A stretch of DNA of 64,000 bases from a virus (taxonomy: Duplodnaviria; Heunggongvirae; Uroviricota; Caudoviricetes; Straboviridae). The notes under the pieces were generated by a model that saw only the letters and a list, made by a program, of their open reading frames with translations, was not told the origin of the DNA and ran no database searches. The stretch lies in the IMG/VR virus record IMGVR_UViG_3300011728_000017; one strand, given 5' to 3'. The position numbers and the translations under genes were made by a program. Position 1 is the stretch's first letter, and each line of letters begins with the position of its first letter. Positions 3,549 through 60,339 of the stretch are shown here, piece after piece.

Positions 3549-3552
3549 AACA

Positions 3553-3612
3553 AAGCCCTTGACTTCGGTCAGGGGCTTTTGCTATCTTACACACAGGAAA
3601 ACAAAACGGTGG
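3553..3612 (+). promoter_or_regulatory. PeSL-like cassette: stem-loop gcccTTGACttcgGTCAGGGGc with -35 TTGACT inside the stem, -10 TATCTT, then the leader box
   Basis: Same architecture as 9645, 18749 and 59945; followed by a small ORF at 3620. Confidence 0.6.
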
Positions 3613-3619
3613 ATTTATT

Positions 3620-3766
3620 ATGAGTGAACTGATTCTGAACGAAACCAAACGTATTCTGTTTAAAGCGGGTTCTTACCGTGTGGAAACTCCAAAAGGCAAT
3701 ACTTCGAAATGGAGTATGAACGACTGGATCAATTATATTGACGTAAACGGGGAGTGGGTACAATGA
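3620..3766 (+). CDS. Small hypothetical protein (48 aa)
   Basis: ATG at 3620 directly after the promoter cassette; stop overlaps the next ORF start (ATGA). Confidence 0.35.
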   Translation: MSELILNETKRILFKAGSYRVETPKGNTSKWSMNDWINYIDVNGEWVQ

Positions 3767-9620: not shown

Positions 9621-9644
9621 TAAAAAAGTATTAGAAAACTCTTA

Positions 9645-9700
9645 AAAGCCCTTGACGAAAGTCAGGGGCTTTTGTTATTTTACCCGCATGGAAACGAACC
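9645..9700 (+). promoter_or_regulatory. PeSL-like cassette (stem-loop aagcccTTGACGaaagtcaggggctt, -10 TTATTT, GGAAACGAACC leader)
   Basis: Same architecture as the other cassettes. Confidence 0.6.
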
Positions 9701-9709
9701 GGATTGAAC

Positions 9710-10006
9710 ATGGATCCCAATCAAAAATTCCCTTATACACTCGTTAAACGTCCGTTATGGGCTGGCGGAAATCCTGTTTCACTTTGGCAGGTAATAGACG
9801 CTAATGAAGCTGTATTCGCGGATAAAGAAATATACGCAGTAGAATTAATCGATCTTGAAAACAGTATTATCGTTCTCGAAGATATTAAAACCAAAAAGAA
9901 ATATTCGTTGACTTCAAATGATGATTCCCGTAAATTCAACGTGTACTGGAAATCAAATAACGAATTCGAAAAGGAAACTGATAATGTTAATCCCATACTT
10001 TACTAA
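9710..10006 (+). CDS. Hypothetical protein
   Basis: ATG 9710 (MDPNQKF...); the ORF track starts on TTG at 9704. Confidence 0.5.
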   Translation: MDPNQKFPYTLVKRPLWAGGNPVSLWQVIDANEAVFADKEIYAVELIDLENSIIVLEDIKTKKKYSLTSNDDSRKFNVYWKSNNEFEKETDNVNPILY

Positions 10007-14149: not shown

Positions 14150-14205
14150 GTGTTTGACCAGTCCGAAAAGTGTGGTATCTTACCCATACCGAAACGGAAC
14201 TGAGG
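14150..14205 (+). promoter_or_regulatory. Early-type promoter (-35 TTGACC, -10 TATCTT) with a CGAAACGGAAC leader box; no GC stem-loop in this copy
   Basis: Shares the -10 and leader motif with the PeSL cassettes. Confidence 0.5.
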
Positions 14206-14213
14206 ATTGAAAA

Positions 14214-14498
14214 ATGACTTATAACGAATTGCTGGCTGGTTTCCCTGGTGTTGGTGCGAAATACAATCTTCTGAAAGATTATAAAAATACCAAACCAGAA
14301 GACATTGAGTATTTGCTGGTTGAAGTTCGTTGTGGTGATTATTACTCTTGCTTCTACTGGGGCCGTTCTTTCTCTTACTGCCTGTTTGGTTCTAAGTTCA
14401 TGTCTGAAACTATGATTGAACAGAAAGAAACCCTGAAAGCGAATAACCCAGATTTCTACACTTTCGCAGAGTCAGTTAAAAACCTCTTCGGTCACTAA
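14214..14498 (+). CDS. Hypothetical protein
   Basis: 94-aa ORF with RBS gagg. Confidence 0.5.
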   Translation: MTYNELLAGFPGVGAKYNLLKDYKNTKPEDIEYLLVEVRCGDYYSCFYWGRSFSYCLFGSKFMSETMIEQKETLKANNPDFYTFAESVKNLFGH

Positions 14499-18456: not shown

Positions 18457-18741
18457 ATGATTACTATTGTGTATTACGATGAATATGAAAGTGAGTATTC
18501 AGAAAAGTCAGGTAGCTTTCAAGAAGCGATTAGCGATAGCAGTATTCTAACCGTAACCGAAAATCTGACTGATTCGATCAAAGCTGTAGAAAAACATCAA
18601 AAAGAAAACGAAGATAGTGACATTGATTACTATTTCCAGTTCTGGAATGCGGGTGAACAATGTTCCGCCGTGCGTATCGGTGGCCCCATCCAGGATCATC
18701 TTGAAGAACTGAACCAGCATCTGAAATCTTTTTTGCATTAA
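18457..18741 (+). CDS. Hypothetical acidic protein
   Basis: 94-aa ORF. Confidence 0.45.
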   Translation: MITIVYYDEYESEYSEKSGSFQEAISDSSILTVTENLTDSIKAVEKHQKENEDSDIDYYFQFWNAGEQCSAVRIGGPIQDHLEELNQHLKSFLH

Positions 18742-18748
18742 TTACATC

Positions 18749-18805
18749 AAGCCCCTTGACGAAAGTCTGGGGCTTTTGCTATATTACACACATGGAAACG
18801 AAATG
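18749..18805 (+). promoter_or_regulatory. PeSL-like cassette (aagccccTTGACGaaagtctggggctt, -10 TATATT, ACACACATGGAAACGAAATG leader)
   Basis: Archetypal copy. Confidence 0.6.
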
Positions 18806-19042
18806 ATGAACGGGGAACTGAAAATGAAAGCAAAAATGATGAAATTCGCAAAAGACTGGAACAACGGCGCGGTAATCGGTAACAGCTACATCATCGTTGA
18901 TATCAACTGCGTTGCTCTGGAAGGTGCGAATGTTCTCGAAGTTCCTCGTTATGAAATGGTTGAGGCCGCAGAACGGGCTAAAGAGTTAAACGGCTATGTC
19001 TTCCACATCATCGACGCAGTAAACAACGCTCTGGGGAAATAA
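18803..19042 (+). CDS. Hypothetical protein
   Basis: ATG 18803 (MMNGELK) directly after the leader box. Confidence 0.5.
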   Translation: MMNGELKMKAKMMKFAKDWNNGAVIGNSYIIVDINCVALEGANVLEVPRYEMVEAAERAKELNGYVFHIIDAVNNALGK

Positions 19043-27396: not shown

Positions 27397-27857
27397 TCTT
27401 TGATCTCAATATCTGGGTTATCGCAGCACTTACCAACGTAAACACAACGCCCACAATTACGACACCTGATTTCCGGGAATAAATTAGCTGATGTTCTTTG
27501 TGCCATTACCGATTCGATAAATTTACGCGCAGTAGAAACAGCTTCATTTACTTCGGCTTCGATATACATCGGTTCAAAGCTACCCATCATATCAATTTCG
27601 AAAAGAATGATTTCTTCTTTGAACCTGTTTTCGCCTTTTTCCGGTTCTGGAGTTGGGAACAGTAAAGTAGACGGGATCGCGAAAACTGCTTTACCCCAAT
27701 CACACCCCGGCACTTCCTTAACTTCGGTGATCACTACACCTGCTTTGAGATATTCAAATTCTTTATCACGAATAAACCCATAATGATATTCGTACACACA
27801 TTTAGTAGCAAACGCGGGTTTAAGTCGGTAGGTCTTTCCAATACAAATCATTTCCAT
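27393..27857 (-). CDS. Hypothetical protein with C-terminal Cys cluster (CRNCGRCVYVGKCC)
   Basis: 154-aa ORF. Confidence 0.5.
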   Translation of the reverse strand: MEMICIGKTYRLKPAFATKCVYEYHYGFIRDKEFEYLKAGVVITEVKEVPGCDWGKAVFAIPSTLLFPTPEPEKGENRFKEEIILFEIDMMGSFEPMYIEAEVNEAVSTARKFIESVMAQRTSANLFPEIRCRNCGRCVYVGKCCDNPDIEIKE

Positions 27858-27870
27858 TATACCTTTAGTA

Positions 27871-28077
27871 TTAATTCAATTCCCCGACAAGTTCCATCGC
27901 CGCCTCAAGGGATTCAATTTCAAATTCAATATTGTCCATATGAAGAACTTTAATATCACCGAAGTAAACAGCAACTAAATTGCCTTCTGCATCGCGGATA
28001 ATGTAGGCACCATCAACTTCTTTAGCAATATGTTTCACTTTCATGTTCATGATGTGTTCCTTATTTGATAGGGGCAA
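27871..28077 (-). CDS. Hypothetical small protein
   Basis: 68-aa ORF. Confidence 0.4.
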   Translation of the reverse strand: MPLSNKEHIMNMKVKHIAKEVDGAYIIRDAEGNLVAVYFGDIKVLHMDNIEFEIESLEAAMELVGELN

Positions 28078-28106
28078 TATACCAGAATAAATTATTGAAT
28101 CAAGTT

Positions 28107-28343
28107 TTAAGCGTTAACTTCTTTCAGCCATTTGTTGTATCTGCATAACTGATTCTGCGCGGAATAATAACTTTCTTCACGGAAAGAAGAAGCACAGTAA
28201 ACCACGACCGGGATAGAAATACCGACTTCTGGTTTGTCGTCGAAAACGAACACCTGAATGTGTTCACGTTTTACGCGCGGTGACTTCATACCAGATACCA
28301 GCGCCAGGAAATCAGCCTTTTTCATCGCATGTGCCATTGACAT
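28107..28343 (-). CDS. Hypothetical protein (start at ATG 28343 just downstream of a PeSL cassette)
   Basis: ORF 28107..28571 is trimmed to the internal ATG (MSMAHAMKK), which has RBS ggag and sits downstream of the promoter at 28360..28420. Confidence 0.5.
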   Translation of the reverse strand: MSMAHAMKKADFLALVSGMKSPRVKREHIQVFVFDDKPEVGISIPVVVYCASSFREESYYSAQNQLCRYNKWLKEVNA

Positions 28344-28359
28344 AATTCGTTCTCCATTC

Positions 28360-28420
28360 AGTGTTTCGTTTCGATGTGTGTAAGATAACAAAAAGCCTCC
28401 TGCGATGCAAGAGGCTTGAT
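28360..28420 (-). promoter_or_regulatory. PeSL-like cassette on the - strand (stem-loop aagcctcTTGCATcgcaggaggctt, -10 TATCTT, ACACACATCGAAACGAAAC leader)
   Basis: A 54-bp segment is identical to 29773..29828. Confidence 0.6.
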
Positions 28421-28446
28421 GAAGAAAAATCGATATTTTATTAATT

Positions 28447-28755
28447 TTATTCAGCGTGGTCAAAAACCCATTTACGACGTTTTTCGTTAAGGTGGGCTTC
28501 GTTAGATGATGTTTCATCGATGTATGATCGATCCCCTTCTTTCGGGCGGTTGAAAGGAATATCCATATCAAGTCCAGCTTTCCTGAATTGGTCTTCCATT
28601 TCTTCGAGCAGTATTGAATCGATATTATGTTTTATGCACCACATCAAAAGACTGGAACATAGTCCGTTAAAACGGGAAAAGCTAGGATGCGGAAGCGCAC
28701 CATTTTTAAGCCATAAAGCATAATCCCAGTAAAAGAGTTTTAAATTTTCGCTCAT
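28447..28755 (-). CDS. Paralog A of the small-protein family ending RRKWVFDHAE
   Basis: MSENLKLFYWDYALWLKNG...EAHLNEKRRKWVFDHAE; about 60% identical to 28784..29092. Confidence 0.6.
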   Translation of the reverse strand: MSENLKLFYWDYALWLKNGALPHPSFSRFNGLCSSLLMWCIKHNIDSILLEEMEDQFRKAGLDMDIPFNRPKEGDRSYIDETSSNEAHLNEKRRKWVFDHAE

Positions 28756-28783
28756 TGTGAATTCCTAAATGTTTCAAAAATGC

Positions 28784-29092
28784 TTATTCAGCGTGGTCAA
28801 AAACCCATTTACGGCGTTTTTCGTTAAGGTGGGCTTCGTCGGATGATGTTTCTTCGGTGTATCTACGTTCCTCTGTAAATAAACTATTGAAAGGGATATC
28901 CTCATCAAGACCAGCATTTATAAACTGTTCAATCATTTCGCCAAAAATTGTTTCAGCCACGTCGTTCACCACACACCATCTTAGTAAACTGGTACATAAC
29001 CCAAAGCCACGACTGAAACAAAGATGTTCTTCGGCACCAGTTTTCAACCATAAAGCATACTCCCGGTAAAAGAGTTTTAAATCTTCGCTCAT
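28784..29092 (-). CDS. Paralog B of the small-protein family ending RRKWVFDHAE
   Basis: MSEDLKLFYREYALWLKTG...EAHLNEKRRKWVFDHAE. Confidence 0.6.
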   Translation of the reverse strand: MSEDLKLFYREYALWLKTGAEEHLCFSRGFGLCTSLLRWCVVNDVAETIFGEMIEQFINAGLDEDIPFNSLFTEERRYTEETSSDEAHLNEKRRKWVFDHAE

Positions 29093-29115
29093 TATAAATC
29101 CCTCACAAATATGTT

Positions 29116-29415
29116 TTAGAACTGCAAAGCTTTTTTATCATTGATTGCTGTTTTAAGCTTCTCGCGGTTAACTGTTACAGTTTCACAATCAGCACCGAAA
29201 CCAGTTTTCCAGCTAACCAGGACTTCGCCTGATGATTTAACCTGGAATTCTTTTTTGCCGAACAGAGCAACACCGAACAACTTACGCTGGTCATCAGCAC
29301 TCATACGAACCCACTGGTTTTCAATATTCAGCAACGCCATTACTTCGAAGAAGTTAATGAAGTCGTAATTACCTTTGTGGTCGATCCATGCTGGTACAGT
29401 GAATAAGTTTTTCAT
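29116..29415 (-). CDS. Hypothetical protein
   Basis: 99-aa ORF downstream of the PeSL at 29428..29482. Confidence 0.5.
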   Translation of the reverse strand: MKNLFTVPAWIDHKGNYDFINFFEVMALLNIENQWVRMSADDQRKLFGVALFGKKEFQVKSSGEVLVSWKTGFGADCETVTVNREKLKTAINDKKALQF

Positions 29416-29427
29416 GGCAATTCCTCC

Positions 29428-29482
29428 GGTTCGCTTGATGTGTGTATCCTATCAAAACCCCTTGCACTTGGCAAGGGGTTCA
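29428..29482 (-). promoter_or_regulatory. PeSL-like cassette (stem-loop aaccccTTGCCAagtgcaaggggtt, -10 GATAGGATA region, ACACACATCAAGCGAACCGG leader)
   Basis: Variant copy. Confidence 0.5.
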
Positions 29483-29487
29483 ATCAA

Positions 29488-29754
29488 TTATTCTTCTTTG
29501 AAGCAAAGTTCTACTTCAACGTTAACTAAGCAGATTGCGATATCCCATGAATCGGCAACCGGATCGTATACTGCTTTATCTTCATCTGCGACCGGGAGAG
29601 CAACAACCCAGCCATCAACAACACGTTTAACCCGAAGTCTTTCAAATAATGCAACCGCGTTGCCCAGTGATTCACCACCGTTAGCCAGCTTTTCAAAACG
29701 CGCTACATCTACCAGGTTGATTACTTTACCTTCCAGATCTTTATTGACGTTCAT
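29488..29754 (-). CDS. Hypothetical protein (start ATG 29754, MNVNKDLEG)
   Basis: ORF 29488..29802 is trimmed to the ATG with RBS aaggaac, which lies after the PeSL leader. Confidence 0.5.
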   Translation of the reverse strand: MNVNKDLEGKVINLVDVARFEKLANGGESLGNAVALFERLRVKRVVDGWVVALPVADEDKAVYDPVADSWDIAICLVNVEVELCFKEE

Positions 29755-29769
29755 AGTGATGTTCCTTTT

Positions 29770-29830
29770 TGCTGTTTCGTTTCGATGTGTGTAAGATAAC
29801 AAAAAGCCTCCTGCGATGCAAGAGGCTGTT
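29770..29830 (-). promoter_or_regulatory. PeSL-like cassette, a near-identical copy of 28360..28420
   Basis: 54-bp perfect direct repeat. Confidence 0.6.
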
Positions 29831-29846
29831 TTAGCAAAAAGTGCTA

Positions 29847-30197
29847 TTATTCTGCGTGGTCAAAAACCCATTGGCGACGTTTTTTGTTCAGATATGATGT
29901 GTGTCGCATAACTTCGGAAGAATAAGAATTCATACGATCATTTCTGTCAGCACTATTGAATGGGAAATCCTCACTTAGTCCGGCGTTAACAAATTGGCGG
30001 CTCATTTCGTAGGTTATAGTTGAGATTTTTTTATTTTCGCTCAACCACCTAATCAGGCATATACAAAGCCCGTCAAATCTCCTGAATGAAGTATGTTCAG
30101 GAGCGCCGTCATTAAGCCAGTTTGCATATTCCCGATAAAATTGTTTCAGTTCTTCACTCATTTCCATAATATATTCACCTTTCAAATTATAGTTCAA
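29847..30197 (-). CDS. Paralog C of the small-protein family (ends RRQWVFDHAE)
   Basis: ...LKQFYREYANWLNDGAPEHTSF...SYLNKKRRQWVFDHAE. Confidence 0.55.
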   Translation of the reverse strand: MNYNLKGEYIMEMSEELKQFYREYANWLNDGAPEHTSFRRFDGLCICLIRWLSENKKISTITYEMSRQFVNAGLSEDFPFNSADRNDRMNSYSSEVMRHTSYLNKKRRQWVFDHAE

Positions 30198-30223
30198 TGA
30201 AATGCCCCCGAAGGGGCATTTTC

Positions 30224-30478
30224 TTATCTCATTCTTAATTTAGTGACAGTTACCAGGTTTTTCGCGTGGGCTTTACAGGCTTCCGGGAGGCTGCTTTTCT
30301 CTGCGCTGTGCTGACGGAGCAACCACTTGAACATCCCTTCCAGGCTACCGTTGCTGTAGTGGACAACGTTTTCAACAATCAGGGTGATATCGTCGCCGTC
30401 TTTAACCAGCACCATACGACCGTTCATTACATGAGAGATAATCTGGTCGTTGTGGAAGTCATTGATTGTTCTAGCCAT
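30224..30478 (-). CDS. Hypothetical protein (start ATG 30478, MARTINDF)
   Basis: ORF 30224..30559 is trimmed to the ATG with RBS aggaacg after the PeSL leader. Confidence 0.5.
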   Translation of the reverse strand: MARTINDFHNDQIISHVMNGRMVLVKDGDDITLIVENVVHYSNGSLEGMFKWLLRQHSAEKSSLPEACKAHAKNLVTVTKLRMR

Positions 30479-30489
30479 TTTCGCGTTCC

Positions 30490-30550
30490 TTTCTCGTTTC
30501 GTCTTGATGTGTGTAATATAACAAAACCCCTCACCATAGGCAAGGGGTTT
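30490..30550 (-). promoter_or_regulatory. PeSL-like cassette (stem-loop aaccccTTGCCTatggtgaggggtt, -10 TATATT, ACACACATCAAGACGAAACGAG leader)
   Basis: Lies immediately downstream of the ligase gene. Confidence 0.55.
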
Positions 30551-30568
30551 CTTTAACAAAAAGTGCTA

Positions 30569-32164
30569 TTAAAACAGATCAGCAAAAACATCATGGATAT
30601 CATTGGGTTGTGACTTATCCCAACGAATCTTTTTGATGATTGGAAGGAAGAAACTGTATTCCGGTTCACCGGGTTTGCGGGTTTTTGAAGTCTGCAAACC
30701 ATCAACTTCCATTTCGACGATTGCCCCGATGTACATATCTTTGCTTCCCATGATGAATTCACGATCTAACCACCCGCGTTCAGTCAGCGGAATATATTCA
30801 CGGGTAACGCCATCATTAGCATAACGGTAATCAGTATCAGTCAGGCCGGATCCGGTATTCGTCCTTGCTTCCCCTGACAAATCCTCTACCACAAATCCGC
30901 CGATTTTATTAGGATCTTTGGTATGCGGATAAACATCAACGATTCGCAGATCGATTGGTGTTTTATTTTTTAGTTTAACCTGGTCGGCTACACGCGAATC
31001 TTTCCAGAAGAAATGCGTATTTTTCAGAATAGAACCTTCTTTACCTTCATTCCGGTAATCGTTGTAATCCTTTTTGGCTTCCGCAAAATTGTACACCAGT
31101 TTAGAAGGAATCAACTGAATATTCGTTACGCCGATTGCAGCAAGCGCACCTTCCAGAATACTAAATCGGTCGCAGTATGGAGCGGTAGAAACTTTATCGA
31201 CATAATACTGATCGTACTGAATAAGATCCCATACCTGGAATACAATATTTTTCTGTTCTTCTTCGGAAATAGTTCCTTTCAGGGATTTGTTTACAATCCC
31301 ATTACCTTCTTCACGTTTCGCCTCTGCTTTATCTTCTTCCGGCGTCGAAGGACGGATGATACCGGAGCCAGAATCAGCCAGTTCAGGAAGTACATCATCA
31401 TCCATAAAGCTATCAAGGCTAAACGGGATAGTTTTGATATCTGTGAATAAAGCAATGGCTTCTTCATCGGTCATGCGTCCTGTTGACATCAGTCGTTGGT
31501 CAGATTCAACTGCCACAACAGGCCCGTTGATATAAATTAGTTCACCATCCAGCACATAATCACAGCCCAGATAATCACGCAGTTTACGCAGCGATGTATC
31601 AAGATCGGTAAGTCCGGTATATTCATTACCTGCGCGGGATACTTTGCGAATGTAGCTTTCTACCAGATCCGCCATACAACGCGCCCCATCAGCCTTTAAT
31701 TGAGAGTAAGCCGGGTAAACGATACGTTTTAAGGCTTTCTCACTAAACGCCGTAGCGAGGCATTGAGGCTGTTCTGGGATAAGGTTTTTCCATACCCGAT
31801 TTGGTATGGTTGTACCCGCACCGCATTCCAGATCGCGGTTAATGATGCGGCGCAATACTTCCCGATCACGTTCATTAACCAGTGACGCAACTTTGCGCAA
31901 ATGATCGCGAGCATCATTACCCGTTAACTGACGAGTAGAAAGCTTGTTGATTATTTGCGATATTGCCCATGAAAGGGAATGAGTTTCATCGGGATATTGA
32001 TCAAACTCAGTAGGAAACTTTTTAACATGGAACATAATCTGTTTATTGTAAGTGATACAAAAGATATGTTTCAGTAAATCATTATCCTTGTGCTTATGCA
32101 GAATCGATTCTTTTTGTTTTGTTTTGAGTGTTGATGCTAGTTCATCAAGAATTGCTAAAATCAT
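30569..32164 (-). CDS. 30: ATP-dependent DNA ligase gp30
   Basis: Adenylation motif I KADGARC (T4 ligase has KADGAR); 531 aa against 487 for T4. Confidence 0.88.
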   Translation of the reverse strand: MILAILDELASTLKTKQKESILHKHKDNDLLKHIFCITYNKQIMFHVKKFPTEFDQYPDETHSLSWAISQIINKLSTRQLTGNDARDHLRKVASLVNERDREVLRRIINRDLECGAGTTIPNRVWKNLIPEQPQCLATAFSEKALKRIVYPAYSQLKADGARCMADLVESYIRKVSRAGNEYTGLTDLDTSLRKLRDYLGCDYVLDGELIYINGPVVAVESDQRLMSTGRMTDEEAIALFTDIKTIPFSLDSFMDDDVLPELADSGSGIIRPSTPEEDKAEAKREEGNGIVNKSLKGTISEEEQKNIVFQVWDLIQYDQYYVDKVSTAPYCDRFSILEGALAAIGVTNIQLIPSKLVYNFAEAKKDYNDYRNEGKEGSILKNTHFFWKDSRVADQVKLKNKTPIDLRIVDVYPHTKDPNKIGGFVVEDLSGEARTNTGSGLTDTDYRYANDGVTREYIPLTERGWLDREFIMGSKDMYIGAIVEMEVDGLQTSKTRKPGEPEYSFFLPIIKKIRWDKSQPNDIHDVFADLF

Positions 32165-32759
32165 TTAATTTCTCTTCAATATCAAACCATGTTTTTACCA
32201 CATGATGCGGGGCTTTAGGTTTATCACGTTCACCACGGATCATATGGAATAAAGGCAACTGACTCATGACATTATGACAATCATCTAAATTCACAGCGAG
32301 ATCATCAATAAAGCAAACAAGACGATCCCCGTATTTCGCTTTTGCGTCAAGATAGCGATGTGTCTTTGATTCATTATGATTAACAACACAGACTTCTTTA
32401 AACGCAGAAGGGAAAAGCGTATTCAGGTTAGCAATACGGTTTAAACTTGCGGCGGGAGTCGTACCCAGGGCCGTTACAGCCACGAAATCATATTTTATTT
32501 TCAGACGGTTGATTACCTGCAATGCATCGTCATACGCGCTTAGATAGCGAATAAACGAGCTATTGTTATATTCTTCCATCAGGATTTTGGCTAATTGATC
32601 GTTACAGCCGAAGATATCAGTCAGGGATCGGAATCGTTCATCAGAAATCATTTCAAGCGCAACATCAGTAGGCATATTATGCTTCGAAAGGAAGAAAGCA
32701 AGCCCGGACTGCCATTTAATCGAAACACCATCAATATCGGTAAGGATTACAGGTTTCAA
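32145..32759 (-). CDS. HAD-superfamily phosphatase, possibly 5'(3')-deoxyribonucleotidase-like
   Basis: N-terminal ILTDIDGVSIKW (DxDG[VT] HAD motif I). Confidence 0.5.
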   Translation of the reverse strand: MKPVILTDIDGVSIKWQSGLAFFLSKHNMPTDVALEMISDERFRSLTDIFGCNDQLAKILMEEYNNSSFIRYLSAYDDALQVINRLKIKYDFVAVTALGTTPAASLNRIANLNTLFPSAFKEVCVVNHNESKTHRYLDAKAKYGDRLVCFIDDLAVNLDDCHNVMSQLPLFHMIRGERDKPKAPHHVVKTWFDIEEKLNDFSNS

Positions 32760-32977
32760 GATAAAACCTCATACCGATCAAAGAACAGTTTACTTTTAAA
32801 CGCATTCAATTCTGCGAGGAAATACTCACGTTCAAATTCACGATAATACTCAAACTCAATACACAGCATATCATCGTTAGTTACGCCAATACCCACGATA
32901 TCCTGATGATATCTTTTAGCGCGTTCCAGAACAAAAGGATCGAGATCCGAACAATCGAAATAAATTACATAACTCAT
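32756..32977 (-). CDS. Hypothetical small protein
   Basis: 73 aa, coupled. Confidence 0.4.
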   Translation of the reverse strand: MSYVIYFDCSDLDPFVLERAKRYHQDIVGIGVTNDDMLCIEFEYYREFEREYFLAELNAFKSKLFFDRYEVLS

Positions 32978-33186
32978 ATATACTCAATATTATCTAAATT
33001 AATCTCTTCTGATGCATTTTCCATCATCATTACAAAACAGTCTTCAACGGATTCATCTTCGGCACGTACAACGACAACCATATAAGGCCCATGTGCTTCA
33101 ATTTCCACAATAGTCATGTGACATTGTTTGATTCTTTCCAGCACAATAGGATGTACTGCGAGAATATCAAAAGTGAGTCTGATCAT
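32974..33186 (-). CDS. Hypothetical small protein
   Basis: 70 aa, coupled. Confidence 0.4.
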   Translation of the reverse strand: MIRLTFDILAVHPIVLERIKQCHMTIVEIEAHGPYMVVVVRAEDESVEDCFVMMMENASEEINLDNIEYI

Positions 33187-33449
33187 TACTTACCTTTATA
33201 CATATAACATGCTGCGAACGAAGGATTATCGATATCAAGTTTTTCAAAAACAATATCACCGGATGCGCATTTTCTGACGTAGCTCTCAATAACATTCATG
33301 CTACTCGCGCCAATTGTGACGTAATAAACGCCTGCTTTATAAATAACACCCATAATCAGGGTTGAACTTAATGTACCCTGCGCATAAAGCAACGCAAGAG
33401 GGTTAACGTTGCCTTTAAAAAGAAAAGCGCACTCTACTCTTTCACTCAT
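33186..33449 (-). CDS. Hypothetical small protein
   Basis: 87 aa, coupled. Confidence 0.4.
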   Translation of the reverse strand: MSERVECAFLFKGNVNPLALLYAQGTLSSTLIMGVIYKAGVYYVTIGASSMNVIESYVRKCASGDIVFEKLDIDNPSFAACYMYKGK

Positions 33450-33952
33450 AATAATTCCCTTAACCGGGTTAACTGACCAACAAATTCACGTTCAGTCAGT
33501 ACCGTTTCATTAGTTTTATTTTTGCCCATTGAATGTGTCAATGTTGCCTTTCCAGTCGCTTTTAATGCACGTCTGAAACCGTCATTAAGGATTATCGCAT
33601 TATACGCATTCGTAATCAAATTTTGATACGCTTCCGAATCGCGATGAACGGGAACACCTTTCCAGTAAAGGGTTTGATCCCTCCACCAGTTTTTCTTTTT
33701 ACCTTTGAACTTCGCGGCCTTGCCTACCAGAGTACAGACATACGCCTGCATATCAGGATTGCTAAATTTGAGGCTTTGTAAAAAGCCCTCCATCGATGCG
33801 CATTGCACCCCGTCGAACGTAAACGGATGCGGGGAGAAGTTGCTTAATGCATTTGAAGGGTAAGAGTTACCGGATCCGATGTCCATTATGACAACATCCC
33901 CATTACCATTAACCCGCCTGCGACACATCCCAGGAGGAAATAGGCGATACAC
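33446..33952 (-). CDS. NADAR (YbiA-like) domain protein
   Basis: LSNFSPHPFTFDGVQCASMEGFLQSLKF (YbiA FSNWYPAPFELDGVTY..SEQY..AQK), KATGKATLTH (TGDATLVE) and a C-terminal ...QLTRLRELL. Confidence 0.7.
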   Translation of the reverse strand: MYRLFPPGMCRRRVNGNGDVVIMDIGSGNSYPSNALSNFSPHPFTFDGVQCASMEGFLQSLKFSNPDMQAYVCTLVGKAAKFKGKKKNWWRDQTLYWKGVPVHRDSEAYQNLITNAYNAIILNDGFRRALKATGKATLTHSMGKNKTNETVLTEREFVGQLTRLRELL

Positions 33953-33973
33953 AAGAAAATTGATTCACTCGCT

Positions 33974-34129
33974 TTCATTACGGGATTCCTTCTTTCCTTG
34001 TTGACGTGCGTGTTTACGACCAGCACGTACCAGTGAATCATAGTACGGACGTTTACGATCAATATTGTCAGTGCGGTAAGCTTTACCGAAATGACTTGTT
34101 TTGAATCCGTAATATTTCATGATGTCACC
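33974..34129 (-). CDS. Small basic hypothetical protein (51 aa)
   Basis: MKYYGFKTSHFGKAYRTDNIDRKRPYYDSLVRAGRKHARQQGKK...; below the ORF-track threshold. Confidence 0.3.
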
Positions 34130-34344
34130 CAGCATACTAATGCAATAGATACGAGGATTGTTACCACATCTACTGTTTCGATATTAATCACTCTTCGACC
34201 TCATAAGGTTTATGAAGGCCACGCGCCGGATCATAACGGTCGTAAGTCGTACCGTTGGTGGATGCTTTGATCGAAATACTGTCACGACAACGCCAGTGAA
34301 CCCGTGCCGCCCGTATTTCGTTAATTTTGCCAGCAATAAACTTT

Positions 34345-34719
34345 TTAATGAATTTCAATTGTAACCCCTAATGATAAAAGTAAGGCAGAAAGAAGCAGGA
34401 TAGTTAGAATTAAAGCCAGAGTCAATTTATAGCTGGATAAAATACTCGACTTTTCTTCAACAGGAGTTTCTTTAAACTCATATCTAGAATAACCAATCTC
34501 ATATCCATTTCCAGAAGGATCAGCCATTAAATCGGCGGCTAGTTTATCATAATCATCGCATTTGATGATAAGACAAGTAATCAATGGATACGGAGAATCT
34601 GGTGGCCCCGGCCATGCATTTTGATGAACAATTTTGGCATCGTTCGTTAATATAGTCTTGTAATCTTCGGTAGTGATTTCTCTGTAGAATGTAAAAGCAG
34701 TGCCGAATGGACTATTCAT
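34345..34719 (-). CDS. Hypothetical protein with C-terminal TM helix
   Basis: 124-aa ORF. Confidence 0.45.
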   Translation of the reverse strand: MNSPFGTAFTFYREITTEDYKTILTNDAKIVHQNAWPGPPDSPYPLITCLIIKCDDYDKLAADLMADPSGNGYEIGYSRYEFKETPVEEKSSILSSYKLTLALILTILLLSALLLSLGVTIEIH

Positions 34720-34950
34720 TTAATCACCAACCTTAAAAATATTTCCGTATGAATCATAATAAGCGCCGATTTTCTTCAAGAAATCATCAGCCCTTTCAGG
34801 GGAACGGGAAAAGATAGCAATCCGATATCCTACAAACTCACGATAAACCGTTACAGGAGAAATACTGGATATACTCTGTTTGAATTCCCGTATACGTGCC
34901 ATGAATTCAAGTGGCAATTCTTGTTCATTATATTCCAGAATATATCTCAT
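34720..34950 (-). CDS. Hypothetical small protein
   Basis: 76 aa, coupled. Confidence 0.4.
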   Translation of the reverse strand: MRYILEYNEQELPLEFMARIREFKQSISSISPVTVYREFVGYRIAIFSRSPERADDFLKKIGAYYDSYGNIFKVGD

Positions 34951-35168
34951 TAATCACATCTCTCATAATTAACGGTTACTGTACGCTCGTATACACGCGC
35001 GAAAAATCGGATATCAGGATGTGTTGCGGTGTTCTTCGCAATATAAGCATCTTCTTCACTATCCCAACCAGCAGCATTAAAATCACTATTGGAAAGAAAG
35101 AGAGTACCGAAGAAATCACGTTTAACAAACTGATCCCCGACCATCATAATATAATCTTTAGTTGTCAT
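34950..35168 (-). CDS. Hypothetical small protein
   Basis: 72 aa, coupled. Confidence 0.4.
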   Translation of the reverse strand: MTTKDYIMMVGDQFVKRDFFGTLFLSNSDFNAAGWDSEEDAYIAKNTATHPDIRFFARVYERTVTVNYERCD

Positions 35169-35359
35169 CGAATCACCTTAAACGGAGCACCGAAATTAGG
35201 ATCCAGATTGAATTCATCAATGATATCGCCGTCTTTTGTTTTAACGGTCGCTTCCATTTGAATATCTGTGTATTCAATAATTACCATACCATCCCAATGA
35301 GGAAATTCTTTCAACCAATCAGATTCAACCGGAGTAATCTTATCACCTACTTTAAACAT
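35165..35359 (-). CDS. Hypothetical small protein
   Basis: 64 aa, coupled. Confidence 0.4.
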   Translation of the reverse strand: MFKVGDKITPVESDWLKEFPHWDGMVIIEYTDIQMEATVKTKDGDIIDEFNLDPNFGAPFKVIR

Positions 35360-35361
35360 AA

Positions 35362-35652
35362 TTAAGCCCTCACTTCCACAACACGGCGTTTTCTTACGAC
35401 TAATACATCATGAATGCCTTTATTATTGCAACGGCTGGTTTTCAGGGTTTCAGTACGACGACCGAGAACCAAAGTTTTAACTTCAACCGGAGCAACAGCG
35501 ATAACCACAACAGCAGCCCAACGAGAGCCAACGGCTTTATCAGTACCCAGATCGATTACAGCAGCGGTATTTTTACCAGCGGCTTTAACGTAAGCACGAG
35601 CTTCACGACGGGTATTGAAACAAACCAGGTCTTTCATGTTGTATGCTTTCAT
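35362..35652 (-). CDS. Hypothetical protein
   Basis: 96-aa ORF downstream of the promoter at 35680..35730. Confidence 0.4.
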   Translation of the reverse strand: MKAYNMKDLVCFNTRREARAYVKAAGKNTAAVIDLGTDKAVGSRWAAVVVIAVAPVEVKTLVLGRRTETLKTSRCNNKGIHDVLVVRKRRVVEVRA

Positions 35653-35679
35653 GATGTATTTCCTTTTAAAAATTAGTCA

Positions 35680-35730
35680 TTTCGTTTCTGTGTGGGTACA
35701 GTAACAATAAACCAATTTCCTGTCAATAAG
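35680..35730 (-). promoter_or_regulatory. Early-type promoter (-35 TTGACA, ACACAGAAACGAAATG leader) on the - strand
   Basis: Shares the leader box with the PeSL cassettes; the stem-loop terminator is separate, at 35756..35792. Confidence 0.45.
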
Positions 35731-35755
35731 ACTTTTCTACTATTTTCAAAAAAGA

Positions 35756-35792
35756 AAAAGCCGTTACCCCTGAAAGAGATAACGGCTTGATT
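35756..35792 (-). terminator. Rho-independent terminator (aagccgttatctctttcaggggtaacggctt + TTTTTCTTTTTT on the - strand)
   Basis: Long hairpin plus U-tract after the gene at 35793..36065. Confidence 0.65.
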
Positions 35793-36065
35793 TTAATACT
35801 TTTCTTCTGGCTGGAACACAGCACGACACGCCCACATCGACGCTTCTTTTAACTTGTCTTTGGCAACGCGGATCTGATGAACACGTTCAAACAGGTTATC
35901 CAATTCATCAGAGGGCAAATCGGCACCAGTAACATACGCATGATTAAACTTTTCATCAAGATCATTCAGGATTGCACCCAGCGCATTTTCTGCATCTTTA
36001 ATGAGATTTACTGTTGACACTTTTTCTACGGTGTGTGGCTTATAGCCTTTGATATCTTCGATCAT
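35793..36065 (-). CDS. Hypothetical protein
   Basis: 90-aa ORF. Confidence 0.45.
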   Translation of the reverse strand: MIEDIKGYKPHTVEKVSTVNLIKDAENALGAILNDLDEKFNHAYVTGADLPSDELDNLFERVHQIRVAKDKLKEASMWACRAVFQPEEKY

Positions 36066-36067
36066 AA

Positions 36068-36634
36068 TTAACCTTTAATATAATAACGGAACGGGTTGAT
36101 ATGGAATGAAAGCATTGCACGATCCAGACCTTTCGGATCGGTTACTTCCTGTTTCAGTTTCCACCCGAAATAAACACGTAAACAGAACTGCACTTTGCCG
36201 ATCTTCAACCACGGCTTATAGACGAACAATCCCCAGGCCGAATCATTCCACATCAACAAATAACCGTGTCGTGTGGTATCTGAACCGCCTTCTGTTTTTG
36301 GGTTGCCTTTCCAGTAGAAAGCACTGGTTGCTTCACGTCCTAAAACGTTGTATGCGAAGTTATAAGCCTTGTTACGCCATAACCAACCCACACGCTGCAT
36401 GTACTCCCCGAAAGCCCCGAAATGGTATCTGATATCGTTCCAGCGCCTTATATGACCACCATCACCATCAATCGGGTTATCAAAGGTTTCCATCCATCTG
36501 AAACCAACTGGAAGATGTTTAGTTTTATCGCTGTAGAATGGCACCACAAACGGAGCCAGCAGGATAGCCAGAACACCAGTGATAATATCCAGGGGAACCA
36601 ATAACAGCCAACTAGCATATTTTAAATAACGCAT
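36068..36634 (-). CDS. Hypothetical membrane protein
   Basis: N-terminal TM (LLLVPLDIITGVLAILLAPFVVPF), Trp-rich; 188 aa. Confidence 0.5.
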   Translation of the reverse strand: MRYLKYASWLLLVPLDIITGVLAILLAPFVVPFYSDKTKHLPVGFRWMETFDNPIDGDGGHIRRWNDIRYHFGAFGEYMQRVGWLWRNKAYNFAYNVLGREATSAFYWKGNPKTEGGSDTTRHGYLLMWNDSAWGLFVYKPWLKIGKVQFCLRVYFGWKLKQEVTDPKGLDRAMLSFHINPFRYYIKG

Positions 36635-53540: not shown

Positions 53541-53851
53541 GTTGATAAAACCATTATATAGAATCTAAAACATGAATTCAAATTAACATCCAATATTATT
53601 TAAAAGATTATTCTTAATGAAAACAACGCGAAGCGTTTCCGTGAGCGAAGCGAAACGGATAGTTTAAATATCTTTATTTGATTAAATTTTAATCCAAAAT
53701 GTCCACTTTTCTCTATATATAGATATATATTAATAAAAATAGACATCCCTAATCCTGTTCACTCACTTCGTTCGTGAATTTCGCTTCGCTCAAAGATTTG
53801 ACTTTCATTTTTCTATCAATATAATCGATTCAAAATTAACGAGGATAAACT

Positions 53852-57995: not shown

Positions 57996-58994
57996 ATGCA
58001 AATTAGCGACAATGTAGAACTGATCGAAACCAAATACGGTAAAATTTCCCGCTCTCCTGATGAATTCATGTGGGATCAGCGTTATCGTCCTACCATCCTG
58101 GAAGAATGTATTATCCCGGCTTCTGATAAGAAAATCATGGAAGGGATCATTAAGAACGGTCGTATCGATAATATGACTCTGGTTTCTGATTCTCCGGGTA
58201 CTGGTAAAACCACACTCGCACTGGTGCTGGCTAAAGCGGTTGATGCGGAAGTGCTGTTTGTGAACGGTTCTGATTGTAAAGTCGATTTTATCCGCAACAC
58301 TCTCGATCCGTTTGCCTCAAGCATGACCATGAAGAAAGGCGGGAAAATCATCCTGATCGATGAATTCGACCGACCTGGACTAGCAGAAGCACAGAAGCAC
58401 ATGCGTAGCTTTATTGAAGCGTACAGCAAGACCTGCTCAGTTGTCGTGACCGCTAACAACATCAACGGTATCCACGAAGCGCTGTTGTCGCGTTGCCCTC
58501 CGATTAAGTTCGGTAGCCCTTCACAGGAAGAACGTGTTGCCCTGATGAAGCAGATGATTATGCGTTGTTTTGGTATCCTTGATATCGAGCAAATCGAGTA
58601 TGATCGCAAGGTTGTTGCTGCTTTCGTTCAGAATCATTACCCGGACGCGCGATCCATTGTCAAGGCTATTGGTCGTTACGCTAAACAAGGTAAAATTGAT
58701 GCCGGGATCCTGACCGAAATTATCGGTAGCGATCTGGCCGGGGTTATTGAAATGCTCAAAGCGAAAAACTTTAAAGGTCTTCGCACGGAAGCAATCAAGT
58801 ATGCGCCGGAATACGAAACTTTCGTTGGTCGTCTGACTGAATCAATTTACCCAAAAGTCACTAATGAATCCAAAGTTTCTCTGATCCAGACCATCGGTGA
58901 AAATAACGCACAGTACGGACTTGCAGCAAATAAAGAAGTTCATCTTCAATATCTTCTGATGAATCTGATGTTTGGCCTTGCCTGGGAGGAATAA
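57996..58994 (+). CDS. 44: Clamp-loader large subunit gp44 (AAA+)
   Basis: Walker A SPGTGKTT, DEFD, SRC motif (LSRCPPIKF); ATG 57996 after an RBS-containing hairpin (aaggaggctaatagcctcctt), which is a possible RegA operator. Confidence 0.88.
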   Translation: MQISDNVELIETKYGKISRSPDEFMWDQRYRPTILEECIIPASDKKIMEGIIKNGRIDNMTLVSDSPGTGKTTLALVLAKAVDAEVLFVNGSDCKVDFIRNTLDPFASSMTMKKGGKIILIDEFDRPGLAEAQKHMRSFIEAYSKTCSVVVTANNINGIHEALLSRCPPIKFGSPSQEERVALMKQMIMRCFGILDIEQIEYDRKVVAAFVQNHYPDARSIVKAIGRYAKQGKIDAGILTEIIGSDLAGVIEMLKAKNFKGLRTEAIKYAPEYETFVGRLTESIYPKVTNESKVSLIQTIGENNAQYGLAANKEVHLQYLLMNLMFGLAWEE

Positions 58995-59566
58995 TGAGCT
59001 TATCCGCTTTCCTTGACGAAGAAGAATTATCCCCGCATGAAATGGCATGGCGGTCTAAAGACTGGGATGCGGTGGAAGAACTGACGAAGGAATACACCAA
59101 GAGTAAAGAGAATACTTTGTTTATGGTTCTGGATCAGTTGAATGATGGTAAGAAACGCCTGAACATTTCCGGGCTTGATACCTATGATAAGTTCTTTATT
59201 GACAATGCAATGAGTCAGCACGTTGACACGATGATCCCTGCTTATGTCATGAATCTGATTGGTTCGGGGTTATCTGACCAGGCGCATTTTGATTATTATC
59301 TCCATTCCGTGCGCAAGGGTAGACGCTCAGGCGCATGGGCAAAACTTTCTTACGACTGGGAAGAAAAGATTATTCTTCGTATCCTCGAAAGCAAGTACGG
59401 TATAAATACAAGAAATGCAATGGAGTATTACGAAGAACTCAAAGAGATTAATAAACTCGAAGAGTGGAAACGTAAAAACGTCAAAGTTGCGTTGTCTGTA
59501 TTGGGTGATGTTGTCAAAAATAAAACCGATCAGAAAAAGGTTGAGAAAATTATACAAAAATGGTAG
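58994..59566 (+). CDS. 62: Clamp-loader small subunit gp62
   Basis: MSLSAFLDEEELSPHEMAWRSKDW against T4 MSLFKDDIQLNEHQVAWYSKDW. Confidence 0.88.
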   Translation: MSLSAFLDEEELSPHEMAWRSKDWDAVEELTKEYTKSKENTLFMVLDQLNDGKKRLNISGLDTYDKFFIDNAMSQHVDTMIPAYVMNLIGSGLSDQAHFDYYLHSVRKGRRSGAWAKLSYDWEEKIILRILESKYGINTRNAMEYYEELKEINKLEEWKRKNVKVALSVLGDVVKNKTDQKKVEKIIQKW

Positions 59567-59944: not shown

Positions 59945-60005
59945 TAAACCCTTGACTTTGGTCAGGGGTTTTTTGTATATTAGGGGTGTTGAAACGAAAC
60001 GGGAT
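59945..60005 (+). promoter_or_regulatory. PeSL-like cassette (aaacccTTGACTttggtcaggggttt + TTTT, -10 TATATT, GTTGAAACGAAACGGG leader)
   Basis: Same architecture as the other cassettes. Confidence 0.55.
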
Positions 60006-60021
60006 TAATGAGGAATATATT

Positions 60022-60339
60022 ATGAAAATCAAAGATATTTTGAATGAACTGAATAACCCGAATGTGTTTGAAAATTATTTCATCACCAGACGCGAAGTCG
60101 AAGAAATGATTCTGTCTTTGACCTGCAATCTGACCGATAGCCGCACTGTTAATTATGCGCGTGAAAACTTCCCTAAGTTTTATGAAGAAATGATTCCCGA
60201 ATATAAAAAGTTTCGTGATGCGATTAAGGATTGTGATATGCCGATTCATTTGACACTGACCGAGAAAACCATTGTAATGATGGGAAACGCATACGATGCG
60301 TTTAAAGAAAGAATGGAGAACATGGAATTTAATGAATGA
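60022..60339 (+). CDS. Hypothetical protein between regA and gp43
   Basis: ATG 60022 (MKIKDILNEL); 105 aa; overlaps the gp43 start. Confidence 0.5.
   Translation: MKIKDILNELNNPNVFENYFITRREVEEMILSLTCNLTDSRTVNYARENFPKFYEEMIPEYKKFRDAIKDCDMPIHLTLTEKTIVMMGNAYDAFKERMENMEFNE

Follow-up and report, generated by a model that had tools for sequence, protein, structure and literature searches.

Genomic setting of the cassettes

The 64,000-nt stretch of DNA analyzed here (the window; IMG/VR record IMGVR_UViG_3300011728_000017) is part of the genome of a T4-like phage of the family Straboviridae, in which a compact cassette, typically composed of a terminator-like hairpin, an overlapping σ70-type promoter, and a leader box (10-mer GAAACGAAAC), recurs at ten sites. 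The nearest record was Yersinia phage JC221, with 84-87% nucleotide identity over the aligned parts, and weaker matches were found to RB43, GAP161, KP15, and their relatives. Judging by this similarity, the phage is of the RB43/JC221 type and not of the RB49/phi1 type. The genes run rightward at approximately 1-20 kb and 54-64 kb and leftward between these regions. All ten copies listed in an original prediction, which had been made from the letters of the window, were present, with coordinates that were right to within a few bases. The cassette in focus contained the following features, with scores from the profile hidden Markov model (HMM) described below and minimum free energies (MFE) of folding:

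18749-18826, + strand: whole cassette with hairpin, promoter, leader, and start codon (HMM E = 1.4e-08)
18749-18775, + strand: terminator-like hairpin AAGCCCCTTGACGAAAGTCTGGGGCTT followed by TTTG (MFE -16.2 kcal/mol), 8 nt past the stop of open reading frame (ORF) 18457-18741
18756-18761, + strand: -35 element TTGACG, within the hairpin (5' arm and loop) and followed by an 18-nt spacer
18777-18785, + strand: extended -10 element TGC-TATATT, in which TG is the end of the terminator T-tract
18786-18794, + strand: discriminator and start region ACACACATG, with the probable start at A18792, the seventh nucleotide past the -10 element
18795-18804, + strand: leader box GAAACGAAAT, at presumed transcript positions +4 to +13

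The gene downstream of this cassette (18824-19042) encodes 72 aa and matched phrog_9636, a family of unknown function. The first genes of the ten cassettes encode 48-105 aa; nine matched PHROG families of unknown function, and one had no match.

Hairpin, putative terminator, and promoter architecture

A GC-rich hairpin overlapping the promoter was found by a ViennaRNA-based scan in eight of the ten copies (-10 elements at 3583, 9676, 18780, 59976, 30520, 29798, 29451, and 28387), with MFE values of -16 to -22 kcal/mol. These hairpins had 9-14 pairs, started 5-25 nt past the stop of the preceding same-strand gene, and were directly followed by a short T-tract of four or five T and then G. The -35 element (TTGACN or TTGCNN) lay within the 5' arm and loop, and the 3' arm together with TTTT(T)G made up the spacer of 16-18 nt. 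TTGAC or TTGC, a spacer of 16-18 nt, and TANNNT were present in all ten copies, and nine of them also had the TGn of an extended -10 element, which is provided by the T-tract ending in TG; among 28 related hairpin-promoters, T was present in 28 and G in 23. The -10 sequence, given originally as TAT(A/C)TT, agreed with this form in most copies, with T also occurring at the variable position (TAT(A/C/T)TT in eight of ten), TAGGAT in one copy, and TACTGT in one. Past the -10 element, the layout comprised 9 nt, usually ACACACAT(C/G) starting directly past the hexamer, the 10-nt box, a variable run of 9-26 nt with a Shine-Dalgarno (SD) sequence, and the ATG of a small gene. A GC stem over the -35 element had been claimed for every copy, and this did not extend to the two copies that had been placed in brackets (14150-14205 and 35680-35730): the copy with its -10 element at 14176 had no hairpin, and that at 35703 had only a separate upstream hairpin. 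The remaining nine cassettes and this separate hairpin were as follows:

3552-3622, + strand: hairpin 3552-3579; -35 3559-3564 TTGACT; -10 3583-3588 TATCTT; box 3598-3607 AAAACAAAAC, degenerate; ATG 3620; HMM E = 9e-4; JC221 ortholog 100% identical
9643-9712, + strand: hairpin 9643-9674; -35 9652-9657; -10 9676-9681 TATTTT; box 9691-9700 GAAACGAACC; ATG 9710
14154-14216, + strand: without overlapping hairpin; -35 14154-14159 TTGACC; -10 14176-14181 TATCTT; box 14191-14200 GAAACGGAAC; ATG 14214; HMM E = 8e-8
28341-28421, - strand: hairpin 28389-28421; -35 28405-28410 TTGCAT; -10 28382-28387; box 28363-28372 GAAACGAAAC; ATG 28343
29413-29481, - strand: degenerate cassette; hairpin 29455-29481; -35 29469-29474 TTGCCA; -10 29446-29451 TAGGAT; ACACACATC, then box position 29427-29436 AAGCGAACCG; ATG 29415; HMM E = 4.8
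29752-29831, - strand: hairpin 29801-29831; -35 29816-29821 TTGCAT; -10 29793-29798; box 29774-29783 GAAACGAAAC; ATG 29754; HMM E = 1.4e-10
30476-30551, - strand: hairpin 30523-30551; -35 30538-30543 TTGCCT; -10 30515-30520; box 30496-30505 AAGACGAAAC; ATG 30478
35650-35726, - strand: without overlapping hairpin; -35 35721-35726 TTGACA; -10 35698-35703 TACTGT; box 35679-35688 GAAACGAAAT; ATG 35652; HMM E = 2e-5
35758-35788, - strand: separate terminator-like hairpin of 14 pairs with T-tract, approximately 30 nt upstream of the -35 element of the 35703 promoter
59946-60024, + strand: hairpin 59946-59971; -35 59952-59957; -10 59976-59981; discriminator AGGGGTGTT, G-rich; box 59991-60000 GAAACGAAAC; ATG 60022

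For the hairpins, 32 non-identical copies from the window, JC221, RB43, a Certrevirus phage, and IMG/VR contigs were folded singly, and their pairs were tabulated relative to the TTG of the -35 element; this table stands in for a formal covariation count because the MAFFT alignment of the hairpins was ungapped and out of register. The predicted overlap of a terminator-like hairpin with the next σ70-type promoter was borne out, as the TTG lay in the 5' arm in the eight window copies and in all 32 related copies and was paired in essentially all 32. At stem positions -5, -4, -2, +3, and +4, two to four Watson-Crick pair types each were found, with compensatory changes on both sides (GC/CG/AT; CG/TA; AT/CG), and in the Certrevirus copy the outer stem was inverted as a whole (GGGG...CCCC). 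From this pairing pattern, the hairpin appears to be under selection as a structure. In addition, hairpin and T-tract have the layout of an intrinsic terminator, namely a GC-rich hairpin, a U-tract, and a same-strand gene upstream, and they are described here as putative terminators. An independent consensus scan of positions 27500-36500 returned the cassette hairpins at 30551, 28417, and 29827 and the hairpin at 35788 as the four best terminator-like sites.

The cassette at 59946-60024 heads a unit that runs into a 911-aa ORF (60296-63031) aligning with the DNA polymerase region of JC221. That at 30476-30551 comes after ORF 30569-32164, which aligns with the JC221 DNA ligase, and is preceded by AATAGCACTTTTTGTTAAAG; AATAGCACTTTTTGCTAAA directly precedes the cassette at 29752-29831. 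An element AATAGCACTTTTTG(C/T)TAAA, which includes the stop codon or codons of the upstream gene, was located before these two cassettes (29832-29852 and 30552-30572, - strand). The same element precedes cassettes in T1-like phages (contigs L034, L053, and L083), where the hairpin contains no TTG and no obvious -35 element was seen at the right distance.

A second set of candidate σ70-like promoters was also found in the window, with -10 elements (TATAAT, TAAATT, or TATATT) at 53820 (+), 53558 (-), 49219 (-), 38985 (-), and 28081 (-), and with A/T-rich upstream tracts in some. None of these had the leader box. The divergent pair of this set at approximately 53.6-53.8 kb is conserved in JC221 and RB43.

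Position and conservation of the leader box

The exact 9-mer GAAACGAAA had five matches in the window against 1.55 expected and was exact in five of the ten copies. The pattern TANNNT-N9-GAAACGAAA with at most one mismatch had eight matches in the window against 1.1 expected, a number that was reached in none of 100 shuffles; seven of the eight were listed copies, and the eighth (59452) lay inside ORF 58994-59566 without promoter context. A profile HMM covering the end of the T-tract, the -10 element, the discriminator, and the box was built from 26 JC221 and RB43 copies, with none from the window to avoid circularity. This model gave nine matches in the window (E = 1.4e-10 to 9e-4), all of them listed copies, and nothing else significant. 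The tenth copy (29413-29481; E = 4.8) kept the hairpin, the promoter, and ACACACAT next to a degenerate box (AAGCGAACCG). Compared with the full 10-mer, three copies were exact, four had one difference, two had two, and that at 29451 was degenerate.

The GAAAC box started 9 nt past the -10 element in all ten copies and not 6-8 nt further, as had been stated in the original prediction, and did not run into the ribosome-binding site, since the distance from box to ATG was 9-26 nt. Nearly all copies in JC221 and RB43 likewise had an offset of 9 nt, though 5-13 nt were allowed, and a few degenerate matches had 7-8 nt. Hairpin and box were found apart from each other, with hairpin-less promoters carrying the box in JC221 (for example 24195 and 161341) and RB43 (for example 10877), and box-less hairpin-promoters in RB43 (85863, 26337, and 3968). 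In 28 hairpin-promoters chosen without looking downstream, each position of the box carried 0.35-1.4 bits of information; the base separating CAT from the box carried none, and past the box the information content decayed. When eight window cassettes were paired by position with those of JC221, identity was 94% in the -10 element, 89% in the discriminator, 90% in the box, and 46% in the next 10 nt. The box matches the promoter hexamers in its degree of conservation, which falls off sharply past it. The box was also kept where the discriminator was wholly different, namely AGGGGTGTT at 59976 and GTATTCATC or ACTTACATC in an IMG/VR contig. A position fixed relative to the -10 element with a variable distance to ATG, as expected for a downstream promoter element, was found in the window, in nearly all JC221 and RB43 copies, in the pL promoters of phages phi80 and HK639, and in T7 A3. 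The constrained spacing to the SD sequence or start codon that would mark a translational enhancer was not found in the window or in phi80, where the -10 element lies 416 nt upstream of gene N. On the sequence evidence, the box is anchored to the -10 element and is part of the promoter rather than of the ribosome-binding site.

By analogy with the annotated starts of T7 A1 and A3 (ccAtcgag and cAtgaaacga), transcription probably starts at the A of CAT(C/G), 7 nt past the -10 element. A transcript from this position would begin with AUCGAAACGAAAC. Nine of these 13 nt are purines, U occurs only at +2, UG steps are absent, and positions +4 to +7 read GAAA. The leaders had MFE values of 0 to -2.1 kcal/mol, 47% A, and 14% U, and many copies had a stereotyped SD region, ACAGACAAAAGGAAC, after the box.

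In copies with CATG and not CATC, the transcript would start with AUG and a leaderless mini-ORF of four codons ending in UGA, for example AUG GAA ACG AAA UGA at 18792-18806 (+) of the window and AUG AAA CGA CAG UGA in T7 A3 (locus L142, 371-385). This ATG was present in only two of the ten window copies.

Mosaic junctions at the cassettes

Comparison with JC221 revealed gene-content differences with junctions in or beside the cassettes, which are reported one by one, the events being too few for a formal test of breakpoint enrichment. In the 9676 pair, the upstream gene, hairpin, promoter, and box up to GAAACGA were homologous (end of the high-scoring segment pair at 9697), and the downstream gene was different. 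In the 28387 pair, only a 27-nt stretch from the -10 element to the box (TATCTTACACACATCGAAACGAAACAC) was clearly common, with largely dissimilar flanks. At 29798, homology began at the upstream edge of the cassette. The 1.7-kb segment 27866-29541 had no JC221 counterpart and holds the cassettes at 28387 and 29451. Several small genes run leftward in this segment, a local hyperplastic region, and the 29798 cassette is situated approximately 200 nt past its right end.

These junctions match the positions of the RB49 mini-circle crossovers, which were mapped between the -10 element and the ATG or SD sequence, and short homology is stated to suffice for T4-type recombination (PMC2839356). Since the segment from the -10 element to the box was the longest near-identical patch among the copies, it is also proposed as a site at which homologous recombination could swap downstream genes.

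Distribution of the leader box across phages

A blastn search with the 76-nt cassette matched 191 phage records (RB43, RB16, KP15, Miro, GAP161, and Margaery types), with 1-8 places per record, mostly 3-7, among the records listed. RB43 was scanned over 100 kb and RB49 over 50 kb, and T4 was left out. The search of RB49, proposed along with the original prediction, was positive: promoter-early stem-loop elements (PeSLs) of this phage carry the motif as TATAAT-ACACACATACC-GAAACGAAA-taGGAG and TAAGAT-ACTCCCATC-GAAACGAAAC-aaaGGAG, with an offset of 7-11 nt. KP15 carries ATCGAAACGAAAC 9 nt past the -10 element.

In the GenBank record of KP15 (L008, NC_014036 53494-59567), the cassettes are annotated as "putative middle promoter; discovered using MEME", and one hairpin is marked as a terminator. 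The label of a MotA-dependent middle promoter is unsupported because there is no Mot box (TGCTT near -30); the σ70 -35 position is occupied by TTGAC or TTGC, and the spacer is 16-18 nt long. RB43-type phages have been reported to be without motA (PMC1524935).

The RB49 PeSLs (L027, 100001-150000, upstream of ORFs 185-228) end uniformly in (T)AGGAGAATCAAA(N)ATG, and the window copies mostly in AAAGGAAC. The RB49 ends, GGA with an A-rich tail, are like the T4 RegB/S1 target (PMC1702504), and RB49 has a divergent regB. As a role for the box, this target was rejected; it concerns the SD region instead, and the annotations of JC221 and of the first 100 kb of RB43 contain no regB.

When IMG/VR was scanned for TATNTT-N6-ATCGAAACGAAAC, at least 120 stretches were returned, and among the matches listed, four contexts were represented besides T4-like contigs: prophage-like, T1-like, siphovirus-like, and Certrevirus. 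In many prophage-like contigs (44-53 kb, among the matches listed), the motif followed promoters set in repeated operator-like sequences of many types, with a gene for a CI-like repressor on the other side, a boxA-like nut leader downstream, and in some an arginine-rich N-like ORF. The T1-like contigs included L053, which matched Escherichia phage ESCO41 at 100% identity, and L034, which matched Salmonella phage slyngel at 96%; their cassettes consisted of a hairpin, TATATT, the box, and an AAAGGAA SD sequence, with an upstream AATAGCAC...TTG(C/T)TAAA element as in two window copies. The siphovirus-like contig L042/L086, which also had the motif, had no close relative in the phage collection. 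A single complete cassette was found in Pectobacterium phage PcCB7V (Certrevirus, Vequintavirinae), as GGGGTTGACTTCGGTCAGCCCC-TTTTGC-TATTCT-TACCCCATC-GAAACGAAAC-AGACAAAAGGAAC. The gene downstream of it had no significant homologue among the T4-like sequences compared (best E = 0.002 over 37 residues), and a transfer of cassette plus gene is therefore unsupported for this copy.

Among named phages, the annotated phi80 pL (-35 TTGACC, -10 TTTAAT) continues with TACTCC-ATCGAAACGAAAC, with the nutL boxA 65 nt and gene N 416 nt past the -10 element, and the putative pL of HK639 (TATCTT) continues with TAATCC-ATCGAAACGAAAC, ahead of a putL-like antiterminator RNA. T7 A3 starts at the A of cAtGAAACGAcag, and its GAAACGA begins 9 nt past the TACGAT hexamer; T7 A1 starts at ccAtcgagag. 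In lambdoid prophage-like contigs (L036, L038, L049, and L113), the leaders past the box fell into few conserved types, for example ATCGACAGCTGAGCGAAGTTAGCCAGCGGCGGACAGCAAGTCGCC-TGCTTTTTAACAA, with a nutL- or put-like look. An Rfam scan of five box-bearing lambdoid loci gave nothing at the gathering threshold.

As a control, the same pattern was searched in 596 Gb of bacterial and archaeal genomes and found in 27 stretches. Twenty-one of these had no promoter context, against approximately 17 expected by chance from our own uniform-composition estimate, and of the other six, two were pL sites of Enterobacter prophages and four lay on phage-like contigs. By this control, the motif is enriched in enterobacterial phages and is not a general feature of bacterial promoters. 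No match to a 50-nt T4-type leader was obtained by BLAST in any of the complete E. coli genomes, a weak negative with so short a query.

A 178,077-bp contig assigned to Flagellimonas marina (NZ_JBHSCL010000010.1), in a marine Flavobacterium assembly, contained three RB43-type cassettes (L157, L161, and L164) with the same layout as in T4-like phages of enterobacteria. This contig has the appearance of a complete RB43-like phage genome that was misplaced, through contamination or mis-binning, and a 244-bp contig of Streptomyces sp. P17 (L169) contained the same kind of sequence.

Comparison with known systems

The cassettes resemble the PeSLs described for RB49/phi1 and later for PST/T4 and nt-1/KVP40 (PMC2839356; PMC4122927), which are likewise repeated intergenic composites of stop codon, AT-rich sequence, σ70 promoter, stem-loop, and SD sequence. 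As in PeSLs, the sites coincide with differences in gene content between close relatives, and the overlap of stem-loop and -35 element is one of five published sub-classes; RB49 elements also carry the same leader motif. The proposed match to PeSLs was thus confirmed for every feature that can be checked in silico (AT-rich upstream sequence with stop, -35 and -10 elements, stem-loop, SD sequence with small gene, and gene-content differences), and only its assignment to the RB49/phi1 type was inexact. In contrast to the commonest RB49 form, the -35 element in the window is usually inside the 5' arm and a T-tract is present, so that a copy resembles a complete intrinsic terminator whose tail supplies TG. 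The RB43/JC221 group is in neither of the two papers, which list no conserved element between the -10 element and the SD sequence and do not include the box or its occurrence beyond T4-like phages. The cassettes are further members of the PeSL kind, in a clade outside the PeSL papers, and the leader box appears to be the new part. Whole RB49 PeSLs supported lacZ expression in E. coli without infection, and one PeSL stem-loop was roughly as effective a terminator as rrnB T1 (PMC2839356).

Compared with ordinary intrinsic terminators, the cassettes share the GC-rich hairpin and T-tract past the stop codon of a gene, but the same DNA of the putative terminator doubles as -35 element, spacer, and extended -10 element. 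The cassettes also resemble T5 N25-type promoters, σ70 early promoters of virulent phages in which the sequence from +1 to about +20 matters. T7 A1 and A3 are promoters of this kind too (PMC5961368; PMC12464699), and only the 7-nt core (GAAACGA) is common to the window box and A3, and 5 nt (the ATCGA start) to A1. An effect of downstream sequence on promoter output was described by Kammerer et al. (1986), as cited in PMC5961368. The pL promoters of phi80 and HK639 have ATCGAAACGAAAC 6 nt past the -10 element, at the same offset as in the window. Unlike the window promoters, they are operator-controlled, belong to temperate phages, have no overlapping hairpin, and lie hundreds of nucleotides from the first gene; moreover, the phi80 leader runs into nutL and the HK639 leader into the putL-like antiterminator RNA.

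The literature search yielded no relevant paper for GAAACGAAAC as a recurrent element or for ATCGAAACGAAA, with much of the older phage literature outside its coverage. In the KP15 paper, the leader box is not mentioned and the promoters found by MEME were analyzed no further, and the promoter logos of Nolan et al. end at the start site (PMC1524935).

Proposed function of the cassette and the leader box

Because of the anatomy of the ten sites and the RB49 experiments, it is very likely that they are terminator/promoter cassettes of the PeSL type. In the eight full copies, a stretch of approximately 75 nt would do three jobs. For the upstream transcript, the GC-rich hairpin and U-tract would act as an intrinsic terminator or attenuator. 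At the DNA level, the 5' arm and loop of the hairpin would give the -35 element, the 3' arm and T-tract the spacer, and TG the extended -10 element (TGnTATNTT), and host σ70 RNA polymerase would restart transcription at the cassette. The new transcript, AUC-GAAACGAAAC from the A of CAT(C/G), would have a purine-rich, almost U-free, unstructured leader with a variable run to the SD sequence of a small early gene. The box would be an initial-transcribed sequence (ITS) that is placed by the -10 element, read by host RNA polymerase, and selected for productive escape from a very strong promoter; it would also give an open 5' leader, and the patch from the -10 element to the box would serve gene swapping driven by recombination.

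The offset to the -10 element is fixed, the first gene lies at a variable and in places very great distance, and the phages concerned have the host polymerase in common but not their regulators; together, these facts point to an element read at initiation by host RNA polymerase. The original prediction had offered a regulator or RNA-binding site, or an RNase or translational-control element. The spread over phi80 pL (with its -10 element 416 nt from N), T1-like phages, Certrevirus, and, in part, T7 A3 argues against an element that controls translation of the first gene and against any regulator confined to T4-like phages, and favors a promoter-linked element read by host machinery. In studies of the ITS, purine content correlates with productive yield, escape is slowed by T's in the first approximately 7 nt and by TG or TA steps near +5/+6, GA or GG near +6 is favorable, and the ITS can alter output more than tenfold (PMC5961368). 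The box is consistent with these rules, as T occurs only at +2, TG is absent, and positions +4 to +7 are GAAA. That the box favors promoter escape is a tentative but serious possibility, and the statement as a whole, namely a portable cassette of the PeSL kind in which the box is an initial-transcribed part of early promoters that aids escape and serves as a recombination patch, seems on balance probable.

Several points weigh against this account. The ITS rules are weak and context-dependent, with CG steps near +5/+6 mildly unfavorable in two of three contexts (PMC5961368), and the box has CG steps at +3/+4 and +8/+9. Selection for a purine-rich, U-poor sequence alone needs no specific 10-mer with conserved G's, and this specificity hints at recognition by something. 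Gene conversion and horizontal spread, and not selection on the box, may account for part of the conservation. The cross-family survey needed the exact box and thus gives its presence in those phages, not its degree of conservation there, and the literature search found no start-site data for RB43-type genera.

The box could instead act as the 5' leader of the RNA, either stabilizing the early mRNA, for example as a poor substrate for entry and cleavage by RppH and RNase E, or serving as a ribosome standby site or enhancer, which we regard as unlikely. The leaders are essentially unstructured and A-rich, as given above, even the degenerate copies (AAAACAAAAC and AAGCGAACCG) stay A-rich, a stereotyped SD region follows in many copies, and a standard open leader would suit a cassette that expresses arbitrary inserted genes. 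However, the variable spacing to SD and ATG, together with phi80 pL, where nut sites lie between the promoter and N, indicates that the box is not in general an enhancer linked to the ribosome-binding site. In T7 A3, the box keeps its 9 nt to the -10 element and not its distance to the RNA 5' end (it starts at +3, against the presumed +4 elsewhere), and this constant offset points to positioning at the level of DNA or polymerase. A purely compositional role would also not conserve an exact sequence.

Although we would not expect this to be the case, AUC-GAAACGAAAC might also be a specific leader of early transcripts that spreads horizontally among enterobacterial phages. It would be a defined recognition element, located at the transcript 5' end or at the downstream edge of the promoter, and thus a portable promoter module whose function goes beyond a favorable base composition. 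Host RNA polymerase or a host factor that binds RNA or DNA may read such an element, which may have been acquired or converged on by unrelated families, including pseudo-T-even Straboviridae, T1-like Drexlerviridae, Certrevirus, lambdoids of the phi80/HK639 type, and, in part, T7.

A trans-acting regulator, DNA- or RNA-binding and of phage or host origin, that shuts off, pauses, or in some other way times early transcription from a site at +4 to +13, for example at an early-to-later switch in T4-like phages without MotA, appears improbable. The two GAAAC pentamers with conserved G's in the 10-mer are more than compositional bias, and the box is kept though the discriminator changes. Among T4-like phages, the box was seen in the RB43 and RB49 types, both reported to be without MotA and middle promoters (PMC1524935; PMC3486835). 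The annotators of KP15 placed these promoters in a separate MEME class, and the box-less σ70-like promoters of the same genome would allow two classes that differ in regulation. Nevertheless, the same box is present in lambdoid pL promoters, in T1-like phages, and, as a single copy, in Certrevirus, which makes a common phage-encoded regulator unlikely and means that any regulator should be host-encoded. We know of no enterobacterial operator consensus that fits the box well; to our knowledge, none of Hfq (ARN)n sites, Rho YC-dimer sites, Cra/PurR-type operators, or NAD-capping start rules fits well on inspection either. In addition, RB49 PeSLs with box-like leaders were active in uninfected E. 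coli (PMC2839356).

It is likewise doubtful that the box has no function of its own and hitch-hikes beside the -10 element as the cassette spreads, being homogenized by recombination. Mosaic junctions lie at or beside the box, and in RB49 the crossovers fell between the -10 element and ATG, with short homology being enough for T4-type recombination (PMC2839356). Cassettes of approximately 100 nt, including the upstream AATAGCAC...TTG(C/T)TAAA element, are common to T1-like and RB43-like phages, and the Certrevirus cassette lies upstream of a gene without a significant homologue in the T4-like sequences compared. Against this, conservation does not decay smoothly but depends on the position: the base that separates CAT from the box varies, and conservation falls sharply past the box. 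The box also survives replacement of both its neighbors, the upstream discriminator and the downstream sequence. In lambdoid phages, the modules upstream of pL are of many unrelated types, and the box is still at the transcript start (these loci were selected for the box and so show coexistence only); T7 A3 has only the core, at the same offset.

Significance

These results extend the PeSL picture to a large T4-like clade that comprises the RB43, KP15, and GAP161 types and many therapeutic phages of Klebsiella, Enterobacter, and Cronobacter, and the window supplies concrete gene swaps with junctions in the cassette. The leader box is useful for the annotation of phage promoters, which in KP15-type records are now given as middle promoters, and the cassette could serve synthetic biology as a compact terminator-promoter-leader part. 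If an initial-transcribed sequence of 10-13 nt is indeed common to the early promoters of unrelated phages, it would mean that a σ70 promoter carries reusable information past its start site.

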